DNA from: Peptococcaceae bacterium UBA4068
Lineage (GTDB): Bacteria > Bacillota > Dehalobacteriia > UBA4068
Length of the DNA: 64,000 nucleotides
NCBI GenBank assembly: GCA_002382665.1
Contig: DFZA01000009.1
Span: 294,495-358,494 of the forward strand
Reading direction: 5' to 3'
Of the stretch, positions 1,369 through 60,040 are shown one piece after another; positions within the stretch are counted from its first letter, which is position 1; each line of letters begins with the position of its first letter. A program made the translations under genes and the position numbers. Below the pieces are notes generated by a model. It was given only the letters and a program-made list of their open reading frames with translations. It was not told the DNA's origin and made no database searches.

Positions 1369-2643
1369 CTATACTTGCAGATTTTGGGCATTTTTATAAG
1401 CCGATGGCGTTTTGCGCGCCCATAACATGTATGTGAATATGGAGATTATGGTGCTGATACCCATTAAAGCATACATCGTACGGTAACCAAAAGCGGTAAT
1501 CAGTATACCGGCGATAATACCTCCCAAACCGATGGCAATATCGAACGAGCAGAGAAAGGTACTCATGGCCGCACCGCGTCTATGCACCGGCACTATCCGT
1601 ACCGCCATAGCCTGCAGGGCAGGAATACTGGTACCAAACCCCAAACCAAAACAAACTGCCGCGGAATAATATGTAATAAGGTTATGACCAAGTGCAATCA
1701 GTAATAATGCGGCGAGATAAGCAAGGTTGGCAAAATACACCATCAGCGCTTCACCATGCCTGTCGGTCAATTTGCCGCTGAATAGTCTGGTGGATGCCGA
1801 AAAAACTGCCATAATCGTAAAAAAAAGGCCCCCGGAACCCAGTCCGGTTGCGGTGGCATAAAGCGCTATAAACGAATTAATGCTGCCATAACTGATAATA
1901 GAGAAAAATTCTACAACCGAGGCCGGAAGCGCATCAACATTAAACAAACGATGAAATAAGTTACCGCCTCTTTCGGTAACCATATCTTTGTTAATCGGCT
2001 GGTAGTTTAGACGCCGCGCCACCAAAAAACTGACAATGGTCATGCCTGCTGAAGCAACAAAAAGGATATGAAAACCGAGCGCTTTCATGACCACCAGTCC
2101 CAAAGCCGGTGCAATCGCCATAGAGATCGAGTTGGTCATACCAAAAAATCCCATCCCTTCCGCAAAACGAGTGCGCGGTATGATATCACAAGCAGCGGTA
2201 TTGGAAGCCGTGGTAGCTCCCGACCAGATAAAGCCATGCATTACCCTCAACATAATTGCAATAGCCAATACGGGAATAAAATTATAAGCGACAATAATAG
2301 AACCGACTATCGGCAGACCGCATATTAACAGCTTACTGCGGCTTTTAGTATCAAGAATCCAACCGGCCAAAGGCCGCATCGCTAAAGCGGCAAAAGCATA
2401 AGCGCCTGCGACAAAGCCGACGATAAGTTCATTACCGCCCAGGCTTTTAATATAAAATGGGAAAGTCGGCATCAGCATATGCGACGATATATAGATCAAG
2501 AATTCCAATAAACATATATAGCAGAAAGAACGTGTCCAAAGCTGTTCTGTCAGTATAGCGGCAGAACCGGCATCTTTATTTTCATTTGGTTGATACAAGT
2601 GTTTGACTGCAAGCGGCGAATGCATTAATAAGACCTCAATCAA
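1369..2643 (-). CDS. MFS family transporter (paralog)
   Basis: 424 aa, clearly homologous to 124..1329 (GW.LD.KSR, HG..WS..TT..NTAACDIIPR.R motifs shared). Confidence 0.75.
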   Translation of the reverse strand: MIEVLLMHSPLAVKHLYQPNENKDAGSAAILTEQLWTRSFCYICLLEFLIYISSHMLMPTFPFYIKSLGGNELIVGFVAGAYAFAALAMRPLAGWILDTKSRSKLLICGLPIVGSIIVAYNFIPVLAIAIMLRVMHGFIWSGATTASNTAACDIIPRTRFAEGMGFFGMTNSISMAIAPALGLVVMKALGFHILFVASAGMTIVSFLVARRLNYQPINKDMVTERGGNLFHRLFNVDALPASVVEFFSIISYGSINSFIALYATATGLGSGGLFFTIMAVFSASTRLFSGKLTDRHGEALMVYFANLAYLAALLLIALGHNLITYYSAAVCFGLGFGTSIPALQAMAVRIVPVHRRGAAMSTFLCSFDIAIGLGGIIAGILITAFGYRTMYALMGISTIISIFTYMLWARKTPSAYKNAQNLQV

Positions 2644-4710: not shown

Positions 4711-6249
4711 ATGCGGCAAAAATGGTTAGGCAGTATCTTCCGCCATCGTTTTGTGGTAGTATTACTGCTGATTATTCAAATAGCTATTTTAGTTTATATC
4801 ATAATAAGCACCAGTGCAGCTTCTTCCTGGATTAACTTGGCACTGACCATTTTCAGTTTTTTTGCGGCGCTATATATTGTCGGCAGTCCCAGAGAAAAGA
4901 ATCCCTATAAACTAACCTGGATTTTTTTAATACTGATCTTCCCTGTATTTGGCGGTCTATTATATTTGCTGTACCGAATACAATCATCCTTCCATCACTT
5001 TGGTCGGCGCTTTAAAACCATGCTGGAAGAAAGCAAATCTCTGTTAAACGATAGCGACTATGCCCTGGAGATGGCTGTAAAGGAAACACCGGAATTAGCC
5101 ACTCAGATAAATTTTTTACAGAGCTACGCCGGTTTTCCCATTTACAACCACACTGAATATGAGTATTATACCCAGGGCAAAACCATGTTCAAAAGCTTGA
5201 TAGACGAGCTGTATAAAGCTGAAAAATATATATTTATGGAATACTATATAATCGAAGAAGGCGTGATGTGGAACTCCATACTCGATATTCTGCGTCAAAA
5301 AGCCGCCAGTGGCATTGAGGTACGCGTCCTCTACGATGATTTTGGCTGTTTTAAGCGTCTGCCTGCCGACTATCCGCAGCAATTAAATGCCATGGGTATA
5401 AAATGCCATGTTTTTAATCCCTTTCGTCCTTTTCTAAGCGTTGTACAAAACAACCGAGATCACCGAAAAATAACCGTTATTGACGGGAAAGTAGCCTTTA
5501 CCGGCGGTATCAATTTAGCTGACGAATATATAAATCTTAAATCGTCACTGGGATATTGGAAGGATATTGGCATAATGGTTAAAGGACTGGCTGTACGCAG
5601 TTTTGTGCTGATGTTCCTGCAAATGTGGAATTTCAGCCAAAACAGTTCCGAGCAGCTAAACACTTACCTCCCGTCTAATAACGATTTTAAAGAATGTCCG
5701 GATGACGGTTTTATTCAGCCATTTTGTGACAACCCGATTAACGAGGATAATATCGGAGAGCAAGTCTACCTTCAAATAATCAATAACGCCAAACAGTACG
5801 TATATTTGACTACGCCATATTTATTACCCGACGACAATATGTTAACCGCATTAAAATTGGCGGCGAAAAGCAATGTAGATGTTCGTATTATCACGCCAGG
5901 ACACTGGGATAAATATTTAGTCCACATTGCCAACCGCGCCTATTACAGGGAATTGATCAGAGGCGGTATTAAGGTGTACGAATATAAAAAAGGTTTTGTT
6001 CACGGTAAATCAATTATTGCCGATGACAAAACAGCGGTTGTTGGCACAATTAATCTTGATTATCGCAGTTTTTATTTGCATTTCGAATGCGGCGTTCACC
6101 TTTATAACAGCAGAGTAATACCGGAAATAAAGAAAGATATATTAGAAACGATCAGTAATTCGTATCTGGTACAAAGAGAGGATTGTATTCACAATGCATT
6201 TACGCGTCTGATTCAGGAAATAGCCCGTTTAATATCCCCTCTTATGTAA
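4711..6249 (+). CDS. cls: cardiolipin synthase
   Basis: Two PLD HKD motifs (HRKITVIDGK and HGKSIIADDK), N-terminal TM helices, 512 aa. Confidence 0.9.
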   Translation: MRQKWLGSIFRHRFVVVLLLIIQIAILVYIIISTSAASSWINLALTIFSFFAALYIVGSPREKNPYKLTWIFLILIFPVFGGLLYLLYRIQSSFHHFGRRFKTMLEESKSLLNDSDYALEMAVKETPELATQINFLQSYAGFPIYNHTEYEYYTQGKTMFKSLIDELYKAEKYIFMEYYIIEEGVMWNSILDILRQKAASGIEVRVLYDDFGCFKRLPADYPQQLNAMGIKCHVFNPFRPFLSVVQNNRDHRKITVIDGKVAFTGGINLADEYINLKSSLGYWKDIGIMVKGLAVRSFVLMFLQMWNFSQNSSEQLNTYLPSNNDFKECPDDGFIQPFCDNPINEDNIGEQVYLQIINNAKQYVYLTTPYLLPDDNMLTALKLAAKSNVDVRIITPGHWDKYLVHIANRAYYRELIRGGIKVYEYKKGFVHGKSIIADDKTAVVGTINLDYRSFYLHFECGVHLYNSRVIPEIKKDILETISNSYLVQREDCIHNAFTRLIQEIARLISPLM

Positions 6250-6257
6250 TAAAAAAA

Positions 6258-6278
6258 CAAGCCGCTAAAAGCGGCTTG
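6258..6278. terminator. Terminator hairpin CAAGCCGC-TAAAA-GCGGCTTG preceded by A7 (left copy of a duplicated bidirectional terminator)
   Basis: Perfect 8 bp stem directly after the cls stop. An identical 21-mer recurs at 6537-6557 followed by T7. Confidence 0.8.
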
Positions 6279-6536
6279 TGAAACTGTCAAAAAGTATCAG
6301 CGAGCTGAGAAACAAGCGAGACCAGGCGTCGTCGAAACCGGCGACCTAGCTGACTTTTACCTTGCGGAAAAACAGCAGCTAATGTCTTCGCATCGTGTAA
6401 AAGATACGCCGAGGAGACGGTGATGATCTGAACGACGACCTAGCTGGCTTTTAACTTGCGGTAAAACCGCAGCTAATGCACTAGCTGCGCTGCTTCGCTG
6501 CTTCGCGTCGTATCGCGAAGTGTATCGGCACGCTGA
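6279..6536 (+). repeat. Multi-copy intergenic element, long mosaic copy with an internal approximately 40 nt duplication
   Basis: 5' module AACTGTCAAAAAGTATCAGCGAGCTGAGAAACAAGCGAGACCAGGCG and 3' module TCGCGAAGTGTATCGGCACGCTGA. Internal duplicated block ACCTAGCTG(A/G)CTTTTA(C/A)CTTGCGG(A/T)AAAAC(A/C)GCAGCTAATG. Flanked by a 21 bp direct repeat. Confidence 0.8.
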
Positions 6537-6557
6537 CAAGCCGCTAAAAGCGGCTTG
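6537..6557. terminator. Second copy of terminator hairpin CAAGCCGCTAAAAGCGGCTTG followed by T7
   Basis: Identical 21-mer to 6258-6278. Overlaps the last codons (KKTSRF*) of the minus-strand gene 6544..7062. Confidence 0.8.
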
Positions 6558-7062
6558 TTTTTTTAGCTGCCTTACGACAGGCATACTGCAAACCAAACAC
6601 AGTTATCAGCAATGCCGCTGCAATACCCCAGATACCCAAACCAATACCGTTGGCATTCCCCTGTGCTGTTGTAATCATACCATAGCCGATATAGTAAAAC
6701 ATACCTACGCAGATTAGTTTGACCAAAGACAGTCCGGCAAATATAACCGCCAAGACAGGGACGGCATTCTCTTTGGTAATCGTCACGTTGAGATTAACCA
6801 TTTTGGGGAAAAAACGCACTAACGATATAACTATGTAAACTAAAATCATTATGCCGGCAAAAAATAAGATACTGTTTTTATTGCTCCAACTATCCGGCAT
6901 ACCGTTCGCGCCAAAATGGCTGGGAATCACATCAGGTAATGCGGCATATTTACTAAAAATTAATACTAAAGTAAGAATTAATCCAACAGCAGCCAATACT
7001 TCGCAGATAATTTCCATTTTGCTGCGAGGGATTTGCGGTAATTCGAAATCAATTTTGAGCAT
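6544..7062 (-). CDS. DUF1648-family membrane protein
   Basis: IPSHFGANGMPDSWSNK motif typical of DUF1648 (SdpI/YhfL-like), 4 TM helices. Confidence 0.6.
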   Translation of the reverse strand: MLKIDFELPQIPRSKMEIICEVLAAVGLILTLVLIFSKYAALPDVIPSHFGANGMPDSWSNKNSILFFAGIMILVYIVISLVRFFPKMVNLNVTITKENAVPVLAVIFAGLSLVKLICVGMFYYIGYGMITTAQGNANGIGLGIWGIAAALLITVFGLQYACRKAAKKTSRF

Positions 7063-51096: not shown

Positions 51097-51275
51097 AAGC
51101 CGCTAGTTGCGGCTTCAGACTGTCAAAAAAGTGTTCAGCGGGCCGAGAAACGAGCGAGACCAGGCGCGTTCGAAACCGGCGACGCAGGCGCATAAAAGAT
51201 GCGTCGAGGAGACGGGGACGGACACAACGACGTATCGCGAAGTTTATCGACACGCTGAAGCCACTAGTTGCGGCT
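51097..51275 (+). repeat. Multi-copy intergenic element (core 51116-51257) flanked by a 19 bp direct repeat of the terminator hairpin AAGCC(G/A)CTAGTTGCGGCTT
   Basis: 5' GACTGTCAAAAAAGTGTTCAGCGGGCCGAGAAACGAGCGAGACCAGGCG ... 3' ACGACGTATCGCGAAGTTTATCGACACGCTGA. The hairpin copy at 51097-51115 carries the A7 run (a U run on the minus strand). Confidence 0.85.
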
Positions 51276-51301
51276 TGGTGTTATCGGGTTTATTGGGTTA
51301 A

Positions 51302-57153: not shown

Positions 57154-57268
57154 TAAATTTCTCCGATTTTCTCATTTATTGTTAATTAATGTCCCCTGAA
57201 CAAAACAAAAACTAAAGCAAATCGAAGCATGCGTGAGCATCTTTCAAGTTTAGGCGTTTTTGATTTTT

Positions 57269-57418
57269 CCAAGTGCAAAACTTTGCACTTGGTGGGGCGT
57301 TTTTTTAAAAGCGCCGGTTCAGTGAGACATCAATGAGTGCTGCACAGATTGAAAACGGTACGTTTTCAATCTTTTACGCGGCTTCTGCCGCGTGAACAAA
57401 CCGAAAATCGGTTTGTTC
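57269..57418 (-). other. Cluster of five consecutive perfect hairpins in the udg 5' leader
   Basis: Minus-strand order: GAACAAACCG-N5-CGGTTTGTTC (57394-57418), CGCGGC-N4-GCCGCG (57377-57392), TTGAAAACG-N3-CGTTTTCAA (57349-57369), GGCGC-UUUUAAAAAAA-GCCCC (57291-57315), CCAAGTGCAAA-N2-TTTGCACTTGG (57269-57292). Confidence 0.6.
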
Positions 57419-57429
57419 AGTAGACACTC

Positions 57430-57458
57430 ATTATATTATAATAGCAAGAGCAAGTCAA
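57430..57458 (-). promoter_or_regulatory. Consensus sigma-A type promoter TTGACT-17-TATAAT reading toward udg
   Basis: Minus strand TTGACTtgctcttgctattataaTATAAT. Perfect -10, near-perfect -35, 17 nt spacer. Confidence 0.6.
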
Positions 57459-57491
57459 AATTTAAAGTGGGATGTTTTATCACCTCACTAA

Positions 57492-57633
57492 GACTGTCAA
57501 AAAACGCACAGCGAGCCGAGAAACAAGCGAGACCAGGCGGCAGGGAGAGCCTGCTAGGGGACGCACTAAAACGTACGTGACCAACGCCGGGGCTTCCGAC
57601 AACGACGTATCGCGAAGTTTATCGACACGCTGA
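57492..57633 (+). repeat. Multi-copy intergenic element with a divergent core, downstream of argG
   Basis: 5' GACTGTCAAAAAACGCACAGCGAGCCGAGAAACAAGCGAGACCAGGCG, 3' CGACAACGACGTATCGCGAAGTTTATCGACACGCTGA. The core is replaced by unrelated GC-rich sequence. Confidence 0.8.
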
Positions 57634-57656
57634 GTGGGGCGTTTTTAACGCCCCAC
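57634..57656 (-). terminator. argG 3' hairpin GTGGGGCGTT-N3-AACGCCCCAC without a U tail, abutting the element
   Basis: Perfect 10 bp stem directly after the argG stop. A degenerate similar sequence (AAAGTGGGATGTTTTATCACCTCACT) lies on the other side of the element at 57465-57490. Confidence 0.5.
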
Positions 57657-57673
57657 TTTATTAATAGTTGCTA

Positions 57674-58870: not shown

Positions 58871-58941
58871 TACTGTAACCTCCTAATGATTTTGTTTATA
58901 TATCAAACTAAAAAACAACATCGAGAAACAAAATATATATT

Positions 58942-59082
58942 GAGACTGTCAAAAAGTGTTCAGCGTGCTGAGAAACGAGTGAGACCAGGCGCGGTCGAAA
59001 CCGGCGACGCAGGCGTATAAAGATACGTCGAGGAGACGGTGCTGACCGCAACGACGTATCGCGAAGTTTATCGACACGCTGA
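58942..59082 (+). repeat. Multi-copy intergenic element between argG and argF
   Basis: GAGACTGTCAAAAAGTGTTCAGCGTGCTGAGAAACGAGTGAGACCAGGCGCGGTCGAAACCGGCGACGCAGGCGTATAAAGATACGTCGAGGAGACGG...ACGACGTATCGCGAAGTTTATCGACACGCTGA. Flanked by ATATAT(T) on both sides. Ends 5 nt from the argF stop. Confidence 0.85.
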
Positions 59083-59086
59083 TATA

Positions 59087-60040
59087 TTATTTATCCTGCA
59101 TAATCAAGGCCATTACCGCCATTTGCGCAAACAGGCGGTTCTCCGCCTCATCGAACACTACCGACTGCGCGCCCTCTATTACTTCGTCGGTAATTTCCAA
59201 GCCGCGCTTGGCAGGCAGGCAGTGCAGCACAATTGCATCCTTCTTGGCGACGGACAACAACTTATCATTAAGCTGGTAAGATTGCAGCGCTTTGATCCTC
59301 TTTTCCGCTTCGGCTTCCTGCCCCATACTGGCCCAGACATCGGTATATAACACATCGGCGCCTTGGGCGGCCGCCAGCGGGTCGGCAATTACTTTAACGG
59401 AACCGCCGTTTGCTAATGCATCTTTAGTCGCCAGCTCAAAAATATGCTGATCCGGCTGATAACCTTCCGGAGAAGCAATCACAACCTCCATGCCAAGTTT
59501 GGCGCCGGCAAACATCAGTGAATGCGCCATGTTATTACCGTCGCCGAAATAGACCATTTTCAAGCCTTTGAGTTCGCCTTTGTGTTCACGAATCGTCTGC
59601 ACATCAGCTAAAGCCTGACAAGGATGCAACAAATCGGTGAGGCCGTTAATTACCGGGATATCGGCAAACTGTGCCAATTCCAAAACATCGTCATGACTAA
59701 AGGTCCGGATCATAATACCGTTTAGGAAACGCGATAGGGTACGCGCCGTGTCTTTGATCGGTTCACCGCGGCCAATCTGCAAATCGGCTGCGGAAAGGAA
59801 CAGACCGACGCCGCCCAGGTAATAAATGCCGGTCTCAAATGAAACACGGGTACGGGTTGAATTTTTTAGGAAAATCATTCCCAGCGTTTTGCCCTGCAAA
59901 TAATTAATCGCCTGACCGGCCTTTTTTTCTCGCTTTATATGATCGGCGACATCAAGCATATAGACGATGTCTTCATGGGAAAAGTCGTGCAGCGTGATAA
60001 AATCCTTGCCGGCAAATTTTTTGTCCAGTTTCATCATCAT
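59087..60040 (-). CDS. argF: ornithine carbamoyltransferase
   Basis: STRTR, HCLP and SMG motifs, 317 aa. Confidence 0.9.
   Translation of the reverse strand: MMMKLDKKFAGKDFITLHDFSHEDIVYMLDVADHIKREKKAGQAINYLQGKTLGMIFLKNSTRTRVSFETGIYYLGGVGLFLSAADLQIGRGEPIKDTARTLSRFLNGIMIRTFSHDDVLELAQFADIPVINGLTDLLHPCQALADVQTIREHKGELKGLKMVYFGDGNNMAHSLMFAGAKLGMEVVIASPEGYQPDQHIFELATKDALANGGSVKVIADPLAAAQGADVLYTDVWASMGQEAEAEKRIKALQSYQLNDKLLSVAKKDAIVLHCLPAKRGLEITDEVIEGAQSVVFDEAENRLFAQMAVMALIMQDK

Follow-up and report, generated by a model that had tools for sequence, protein, structure and literature searches.

The closest documented relatives, in behaviour, of the element described here are IS1272 and the IS1182 family. 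In staphylococci, IS1272 and TnSha1 (IS1182 family) target terminator stem-loops just downstream of genes, and because these targets are unrelated in sequence, recognition is by structure (PMC5678879, PMC4923244). Wan et al. observed loss of the stem-loop as the product of IS1272 insertion and drew duplication of the whole hairpin as pathway b (PMC5678879); under that pathway of the cruciform model (Fig. 13, PMC5678879; PMC4923244), the whole stem-loop would be duplicated if the attack fell on its 5' feet. Furi et al. showed that TnSha1 and IS1272 strike terminator hairpins of unrelated sequence and that the hairpin is partly deleted (PMC4923244). Insertion of IS1272 or TnSha1 deletes the stem-loop wholly or partly and makes no target duplication, whereas the element in the present study duplicates the whole stem-loop.

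IS1397 and ISKpn1 insert specifically into extragenic palindromes. To our knowledge, these two elements, as well as ISPpu9, stay inside one palindrome sequence family with short or no duplications, and we know of no duplication of a whole palindrome and no use of arbitrary terminators among them. In spacer acquisition by Cas1-Cas2, both borders of a partly palindromic repeat are attacked and repair duplicates the whole repeat; however, neither cas genes nor a repeat array is present here. The homing sites of class C group II introns adjoin terminator stem-loops; these introns do not duplicate the hairpin, and they have RNA domains and usually a reverse transcriptase. The present locus has no intron RNA domains or reverse transcriptase, and such an intron was rejected as a candidate since there was no Rfam match, the copies are only 131-301 nt long, and the hairpin is duplicated. 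The specificity of ISPpu9 for extragenic palindromes has been described (PMC8450116). MITEPye1 of Paracoccus yeei is an intergenic MITE derived from the IS1182 family, with a long stem-loop fold and presumed mobilisation in trans (PMC11578231). It is small and non-coding and has terminal inverted repeats, as does the present element, but its direct repeats are fixed at 4 bp, no hairpin targeting is reported for it, and its ends clearly match those of the resident ISPye18. The duplications made by IS1634 and IS1549 (IS1634 family) range from 8 to 514 bp and vary from copy to copy, and no mechanistic model has been given for them (PMC2266710). These two elements have no reported link to hairpins; the usual duplications of the IS1634 family are AT-rich tracts of 5-6 bp, and its terminal pattern C-----YT does not fit the ends of the present element.

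The insertion between cls and the DUF1648 gene

The window, that is, the whole 64,000-nt stretch of DNA that was analysed, comes from an uncultured Bacillota bacterium, and the element is known from sequence alone. Reading of positions 6100-6700 showed that the stop codon TAA of cls ends at 6249 and is followed by A7 (6251-6257), a hairpin, an insert, a second hairpin, and T7 (6558-6564), so that the A-run lies to the left of the insertion and the T-run to the right, as had been noticed originally. In a pattern search, CAAGCCGCTAAAAGCGGCTTG (21 nt) occurred exactly twice on the plus strand, at 6258-6278 and 6537-6557, with 258 nt between the copies; the chance expectation from shuffled sequence is 0 matches. 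The original observation of a 21-bp hairpin present twice around a 258-nt element was thus borne out, except that the direct repeat is really one base longer on each side. Including the closing A/T, it is the 23-nt sequence ACAAGCCGCTAAAAGCGGCTTGT at 6257-6279 and 6536-6558, and the inserted element is 256 nt long (6280-6535, plus strand; 258 nt with the flanking T and A). This element is a long form, with the 5' tail GAAACTGTCAAAAAGTA, the inner-left repeat TCAGCGAGCTGAGAAAC, the 3' end ...GTATCGGCACGCTG, and two internal stem-loop modules of about 43 nt, at 6345-6384 and 6439-6481.

The DUF1648 open reading frame (6544-7062, minus strand) ends in ...KKTSRF*. As noticed originally, this end is encoded by the right hairpin copy: the final codons and the stop codon lie within its T-run, right arm, and loop. 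The reading frame is intact because the duplication regenerates the 3' end of the gene.

Exact-protein look-ups with the window genes led back to the same strain, in which the element is present, and orthologous loci were then obtained through homologues. Empty alleles were found for four sites, three of them hairpin sites and one a site without a hairpin. At the cls/DUF1648 junction, the relative L022 (loci outside the window are designated L with a number), whose DUF1648 protein is 94% identical, has ...ATATAAAAAAACAAGCCGCTAAAAGCGGCTTGTTTTTTTAGCTGCC..., in which one hairpin stands between A7 and T7, exactly the empty site that had been anticipated. L023 and L025 (67-70% identity) also have a single hairpin, and the element is absent from all three. 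Thus, the element was inserted here and the target hairpin was duplicated exactly.

On the minus strand, the U-tract of the terminator is formed by the A7 run, which is also present in L022, and on the plus strand by T7. A terminator scan called the left copy on the minus strand only and the right copy on the plus strand only. After the insertion, the left copy would therefore serve as a terminator for the minus strand alone and the right copy for the plus strand alone; that is, a single bidirectional terminator appears to have been split into two one-directional ones. If so, transcription of each of the convergent genes should run through the nearer hairpin, which lacks a U-tract, and across the element before ending at the farther copy, and the two genes may gain complementary 3' extensions of about 280 nt.

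The element family and its target duplications

Exact-pattern scans located further copies in a Bacillota MAG (L005, the sole match from the scan of species-representative genomes), in 15 metagenome stretches (L006-L021 except L012), and in a set of viral contigs (L031); the hosts are several uncultured Bacillota. Of the other matches, L012, considered as a possible IS end, was rejected because it lies inside an unrelated open reading frame and a chance match to a 20-mer is expected at the size of the database, and L029 and L030 (viral contigs) are chance matches in coding regions. Copies range from 131 to 301 nt. The termini NAGACTGTC...CACGCTG are constant across about 16 independent loci, and this conservation at both the 5' and 3' ends extends over at least six metagenomes and one MAG. 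The ends can be written 5'-NAGACTGTCAAAAAGTGG TCAGCGGGCYGAGAAAC ... GTTTATCGACACGCTG-3', or as the terminal strings TNAGACTGTCAAAAAGT... (left) and ...GTTTATCGACACGCTGA (right); the five copies in the window share the 5' part (N)AGACTGTCAAAAAGTGGTCAGCGNGCYGAGAAACRAGCGAGACCAGGCG and the 3' part CAACGACGTATCGCGAAGTTTATCGACACGCTG. The inner-left TCAGCGGGCYGAGAAAC and the right end GTTTATCGACACGCTGA form imperfect inverted repeats (28 pairs in the consensus fold), and the outer-left tail TNAGACTGTC forms a second copy, which is weaker. A tandemly duplicated left end is also known from IS1272L (PMC5678879, PMC4923244), comparable to the two repeat-like motifs at the left end of the present element. 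As a consensus, the element folds into a rod whose first 20 nt or so are unpaired, and pairing in the central stem is kept by compensatory changes at nine pairs. Long forms contain one to three stem-loop modules of about 43 nt and other modules, all confined to the interior of the element.

The element has no transposase open reading frame, and the frames that overlap it are spurious ones running across structured repeats. A search of the whole window against Rfam at the gathering threshold gave no match, and the element region at E<=1 gave sub-threshold, terminator-driven matches only. Being small and multicopy, without a transposase gene, and with inverted repeats, target duplication, and presence/absence polymorphism, the element has the properties of a MITE.

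Four further copies lie in the window, all on the plus strand. The one at positions 1-112, absent from the earlier reading, is the 3' part of a long form cut by the start of the window; the full copy and its left flank were completed from L032. On its right it is followed by the 9-nt duplication TAGGCGTTT (113-121), which covers a terminator from the end of its loop through the 3' arm into the T-run. A short form of 142 nt (51116-51257) lies between a left hairpin copy AAGCCGCTAGTTGCGGCTT (51097-51115), with an A-run to its left that would make it a minus-strand terminator, and a right copy (51258-51276) with one mismatch (G>A), by which one pair of the stem is lost, and with no U-tract. At this site L044/L045 (dGTPase 96% identical) contain AATAAAAAAAGCCGCTAGTTGCGGCTTGGGG once, with a single AAGCCGCTAGTTGCGGCTT identical to the left copy, and L042 (83%) likewise has one hairpin. 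A remnant of the element is present at this hairpin in L043, which is more distant than the empty L044; the site may have been reused independently, or the insertion may have been lost. A short form of 143 nt with a diverged central part (57490-57632) stands between a decayed left hairpin copy AGTGGGATGTTTTATCACCTCACT (57466-57489, -2.2 kcal/mol) and an intact right copy AGTGGGGCGTTTTTAACGCCCCACT (57633-57657, -13.6 kcal/mol) followed by a T-rich tract. L026/L027 (argG 97%) have one hairpin in the corresponding argG-udg spacer. The 57490 copy is an older insertion, since L028 (argG 98%) holds a decayed version at the same site from which the left hairpin and the 5' part have been deleted. Last, a short form of 140 nt (58942-59081) lies in the argF-argG spacer, antisense to the genes on either side, at a site without a hairpin (fold of the site, -1 kcal/mol). 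It is flanked by the 7-bp duplication ATATATT at 58935-58941 and 59082-59088, the right copy of which overlaps the stop codon of the argF ortholog (59087-60040); the element is absent from this spacer in L026/L027 and present in L028. The recurrences originally described at these three places, namely a 19-bp hairpin duplicated with one mismatch, a degenerate version, and ATATAT(T) flanks, were all found again. The occupied and empty alleles in relatives show that the insertions differ in age and are polymorphic among close strains, and polymorphism at 94-98% protein identity indicates that the element was active recently.

We catalogued the flanks of all copies using the element boundaries NAGACTG...CACGCTG. 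Nearly all full-length copies have a duplication, and at every locus with a detectable repeat the offset between the direct repeats and the element ends is zero. No clear flanking repeat was seen at L007, L008, or L016, and L005 has at most a weak 7-mer repeat. The duplications fall into three classes, 6-9 bp, a whole stem-loop of 19-27 bp, and 40-43 bp at one locus. Whole stem-loops are duplicated at nine independent loci: the copies at 6280 (23/23 nt), 51116 (19 nt, one mismatch), and 57490 (a 24/25-nt pair with an indel), and L006 (25 nt, three mismatches), L009 (21 nt, five mismatches), L015 (25-27 nt, one mismatch), L020 and L021 (26 nt and one mismatch each), and L010a (40-43 nt, two mismatches). 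These stem-loops are unrelated in sequence, and thus the target is independent of its sequence. With the exception of L010a, the centre of the repeat coincides with that of the palindrome within 1-2 nt. Most duplications run from an initial A to a final T, at the boundary between the stem and the T-run. The L010a repeat reaches 15-18 nt past the hairpin, and this copy has a truncated 5' end and TCAAAAA microhomology at one junction. The short repeats are ATATATT at the 58942 copy (7 nt; 6 in L028), AGAGC[A/C]T in L013/L018 (7 nt), and TAGGCGTTT at copy 1-112 (9 nt), the latter two consisting of the 3' arm of a hairpin and the first T's. The hairpin-length duplication pointed out originally therefore recurs widely but is not family-wide, as duplications are 6-9 bp at unstructured sites or inside a hairpin arm.

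A terminator stem-loop lies directly at the 3' end of the element in at least 12 of about 16 loci (in L005 it is 7 nt away). The 5'-truncated copies L010b, L011, L017, and L031 have no left hairpin; the L028 allele shows that 5' truncation can be a secondary deletion. Wherever the comparison is informative (five loci), it is the hairpin copy lacking a U-tract that has decayed, which fits the hairpins being functional terminators.

Mode of insertion

These observations are probably best explained by a family of small, non-coding, MITE-type elements whose movement in trans is due to a DDE transposase that acts on extruded palindromes. The precise and conserved termini, the inverted repeats, the short duplications at ordinary sites, and the occurrence of both orientations point to a staggered cut by a transposase followed by gap repair, and as the long duplications are whole stem-loops whatever their sequence, the two strand-transfer sites appear to be set by structure. 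In this model, a DDE-type transposase encoded elsewhere, most plausibly by an IS1182-family relative, would mobilise the element. On ordinary DNA it would make a staggered attack of 6-9 bp. At a G+C-rich palindrome, for example an intrinsic terminator, it would join both 3'-OH ends of the element to the two 5' feet of the palindrome, one on each strand. Most simply, the palindrome would extrude as a cruciform, by which both feet are brought together; the symmetry of the duplications suggests such extrusion. Repair of the gaps would then copy a complete stem-loop on each side of the element, so that the A-run stays on the left, the T-run stays on the right, and a gene end encoded in the hairpin remains intact. 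The origin of the internal modules lies outside this mechanism, as do the L010a duplication and the loci without duplication.

The preference for palindrome or hairpin targets, a property of the IS1182 family (PMC5678879, PMC4923244), is shared by the present element. We built an end profile from the 14 terminal repeats of IS1272, ISClbu1, IS1182, and four more IS1182-family copies from plasmids; the terminal consensus of the family is roughly AG(G/A)G(G/A)CTG(T/G)(G/C)(A/C)CA(A/T)AA(G/A)T. The left terminus TGAGACTGTCAAAAAGT was the best match to the profile in the whole window on both strands. This best match belongs to the 58942 copy, whose left terminus (TGAGACTGTCAAAAAGTG) scores 15.3 bits, and shuffled sequences reach 15.4-17.7 bits in 128 kb. 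In three of four copies, the left terminus gave an anchored P < 1e-3, although genome-wide its score did not exceed the best scores of shuffled sequence. The right terminus did not match the profile (score -3.9). No target duplication, and hence no duplication of a hairpin by a named member, was visible in seven full-length IS1182-family copies from plasmids. Direct repeats of 0-60 bp are given for the IS1182 family in ISfinder. A tblastn search with the IS1272 transposase found no match in the window or the fetched loci. As for a full-length parent element, one chance match was the only hit in the plasmid collection, and the viral contigs gave none, with one further MITE copy (L031). Searches of the window and the fetched loci by nhmmer with models of both ends returned MITE copies only. 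Compared with IS1272 and TnSha1, the present element is only 131-301 nt long and lacks a transposase, and its left end may fit the family profile while its right end does not. Because of the shuffle scores, the mismatch at the right end, the family copies without duplication, and the transposase searches without a match, we regard membership in the IS1182 family as a lead rather than a result.

One alternative, which we regard as unlikely, is that the transposase acts without extrusion. A symmetric dimer would read the junction between the G+C-rich stem and the A/T tract on B-form DNA, and the stagger would equal the length of the palindrome since the preferred motif occurs once per strand. 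The A...T form of most duplications, ending at the stem/T-run boundary, agrees with such a reading, and so do the short duplications within a hairpin (copy 1-112 and L013), which keep their right boundary at this junction. However, duplication takes the same form at hairpins where a T-run is missing from one or both sides: the right side of the 51116 site is GGTG, and L009 lacks both runs. Furthermore, we know of no structural precedent for a DDE synaptic complex that spans 19-27 bp of B-DNA.

The structure-targeted insertion proposed originally is supported by the unrelated hairpins, the exact abutment of repeats and element ends, and the empty alleles, but the single-stranded target or template switching that was suggested with it is not required by the data. 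In such a process, the element would insert into single-stranded DNA at a replication fork, or a polymerase stalled at the terminator hairpin would switch templates, and the nascent strand would take up an element copied from another place and return upstream of the hairpin, so that the hairpin is copied twice. All five copies in the window are on one strand, in a region of uniformly negative GC skew with genes mostly on the minus strand, as expected of a fork-linked process; however, five of five on the same strand gives a two-sided P of about 0.06, and at other loci the orientation relative to GC skew and neighbouring genes is mixed, with L006, L007, and L017 opposite. Given this mixed orientation outside the window, we do not claim a strand bias of insertion. 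The varying length of the duplications and the L010a junction, with its microhomology and truncated 5' end, would also suit template switching, but full-length copies are nucleotide-precise at both ends, and a 7-bp duplication was made at a hairpin-free site. Taken together, we consider this process quite unlikely. Elements of the IS200/IS605 type and REP/RAYT systems (HUH, single-stranded DNA) make no target duplication, have no terminal inverted repeats, and show a strict strand bias. They were rejected because nearly all full-length copies here have duplications, the element has inverted repeats, and its orientation is mixed.

It is very improbable that the element is SINE-like, a structured RNA copied back by target-primed reverse transcription. 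The constant 3' end together with several 5'-truncated copies (L010a, L010b, L011, L017, L031), duplications that span 6 to 43 nt, and the stem conserved by compensatory changes are features that such an RNA might have. However, at the sole checkable site (57490, in L028), the 5' truncation is a later deletion, full-length copies are equally precise at the 5' and 3' ends, the element has inverted terminal repeats, and neither a reverse transcriptase nearby nor an Rfam match was seen. The chance that tandem terminators were already present, or arose by local duplication or recombination with the element merely between them, is practically nil, since this is refuted by the empty sites, where relatives carry exactly one hairpin, and the same architecture occurs at many unrelated hairpins.

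Implications for terminator-directed transposition

The choice of terminators by structure is already known from IS1272 and TnSha1, in which the hairpin is lost; the present element provides natural data for the duplication branch that was hypothetical there. If a transposase does act on extruded palindromes, one and the same enzyme would make duplications of 6-9 bp on ordinary DNA and of a complete stem-loop at palindromes. We tentatively raise the possibility that this is the first natural mode of transposition in which the length of the duplication is determined by an extruded cruciform and not by a fixed spacing on B-DNA. The cruciform reading would also account concretely for variable duplication lengths, for which IS1634 and IS1549 have lacked an explanation.

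Short structured repeats standing between duplicated terminators form a signature that can be used in annotation to find such elements. In the host, the predicted long complementary 3' ends of the convergent genes could couple their expression. Furthermore, if the proposed mechanism is correct, insertion would be non-destructive by construction, as both sides would retain the terminators together with any gene ends that these encode, and the copies of the element would constitute a genomic record of the places at which cruciforms arise in living cells.

Duplicated hairpins and their flanks

At each of the five informative loci, the two copies of the duplicated hairpin differed: the one followed by a U-tract was intact, and the one lacking a U-tract contained stem-breaking substitutions. 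The substituted copies are those at 51258-51276 and 57466-57489 of the window, and the left copies at the metagenome loci L006, L009 and L015. At L015 (reverse strand), just upstream of the element, a 15-nt unit, AGAAAGCAGAATATT, is repeated in tandem at least four times immediately ahead of the left hairpin copy. At another metagenome locus, L010, a copy on the minus strand (1277-1413) lies between the gene for a SCIFF-like cysteine-rich peptide (MKHVKTINKTNLKKTATKGGCGECQTSCQSACKTSCTVANQDCEKKIR) and the next gene. Its duplication (40-43 nt) takes in the hairpin and T-run as well as the downstream gene's ribosome-binding site, and the 5' end of the element is truncated, at a TCAAAAA microhomology.

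Possible repeated use of insertion sites

In the more distant relative L043 (about 2445-2617, reverse strand), only the first approximately 35 nt of an element was found, adjoining the same hairpin as the window copy at 51116, and the junction differs by one base. The dGTPase of L043, with this partial element, is 88% identical to that of the window, whereas those of L044 and L045, where the site is empty, are 96% identical. The remnant, together with the empty sites, suggests either independent reuse of one hairpin or loss of an insertion.

Compared with the empty relative L026, the udg-argG spacer has approximately 250 extra nt (57183-57433), with imperfect inverted repeats (22 nt, 82%) at both borders and, inside, a partial third copy of the 5' arm of the terminator, GTGGGGCGTTTTT (57292-57304). 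A different small element, inserted earlier at the same hairpin, may account for this segment, of which no second copy was found among the sequences compared.

Internal modules and element ends

Long-form elements carry, at two distinct internal positions, one to three copies of a stem-loop module of about 43 nt, CCTAGCTGGCTTTTACCTTGCGGTAAAACCGCAGCTAATGCAC, which occurs at 6345-6384 and 6439-6481, in the viral-contig copy L031, in L007, L011, L013 and L017, and in L032, the locus that completes the window copy at position 1; no occurrence was found outside long-form elements. Possibly, the module arose by internal duplication or is a still smaller mobile unit. Further internal modules are common either to L007, L021 and the copy at position 1 or to L009 and L021.

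The left end of the element (58942-58960, and the equivalent in other copies) has on the minus strand an outwardly directed TTGACA, a -35-like hexamer of the type carried by many insertion sequences; no -10 sequence to match it was seen at the 58942 site.

At L016 (3309-3591), a diverged second element is apparently nested within the apical hairpin of another copy, with no clear duplication visible at the nested junction. If it is nested there, the element is able to target its own stem-loops. Several full-length IS1182-family elements from plasmids (L036-L038 and L040) have G+C-rich terminal repeats followed immediately by a T-run, and their ends themselves thus resemble a terminator stem. 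ISClbu1 and the Paenibacillus copy also have a separate subterminal hairpin at either end.
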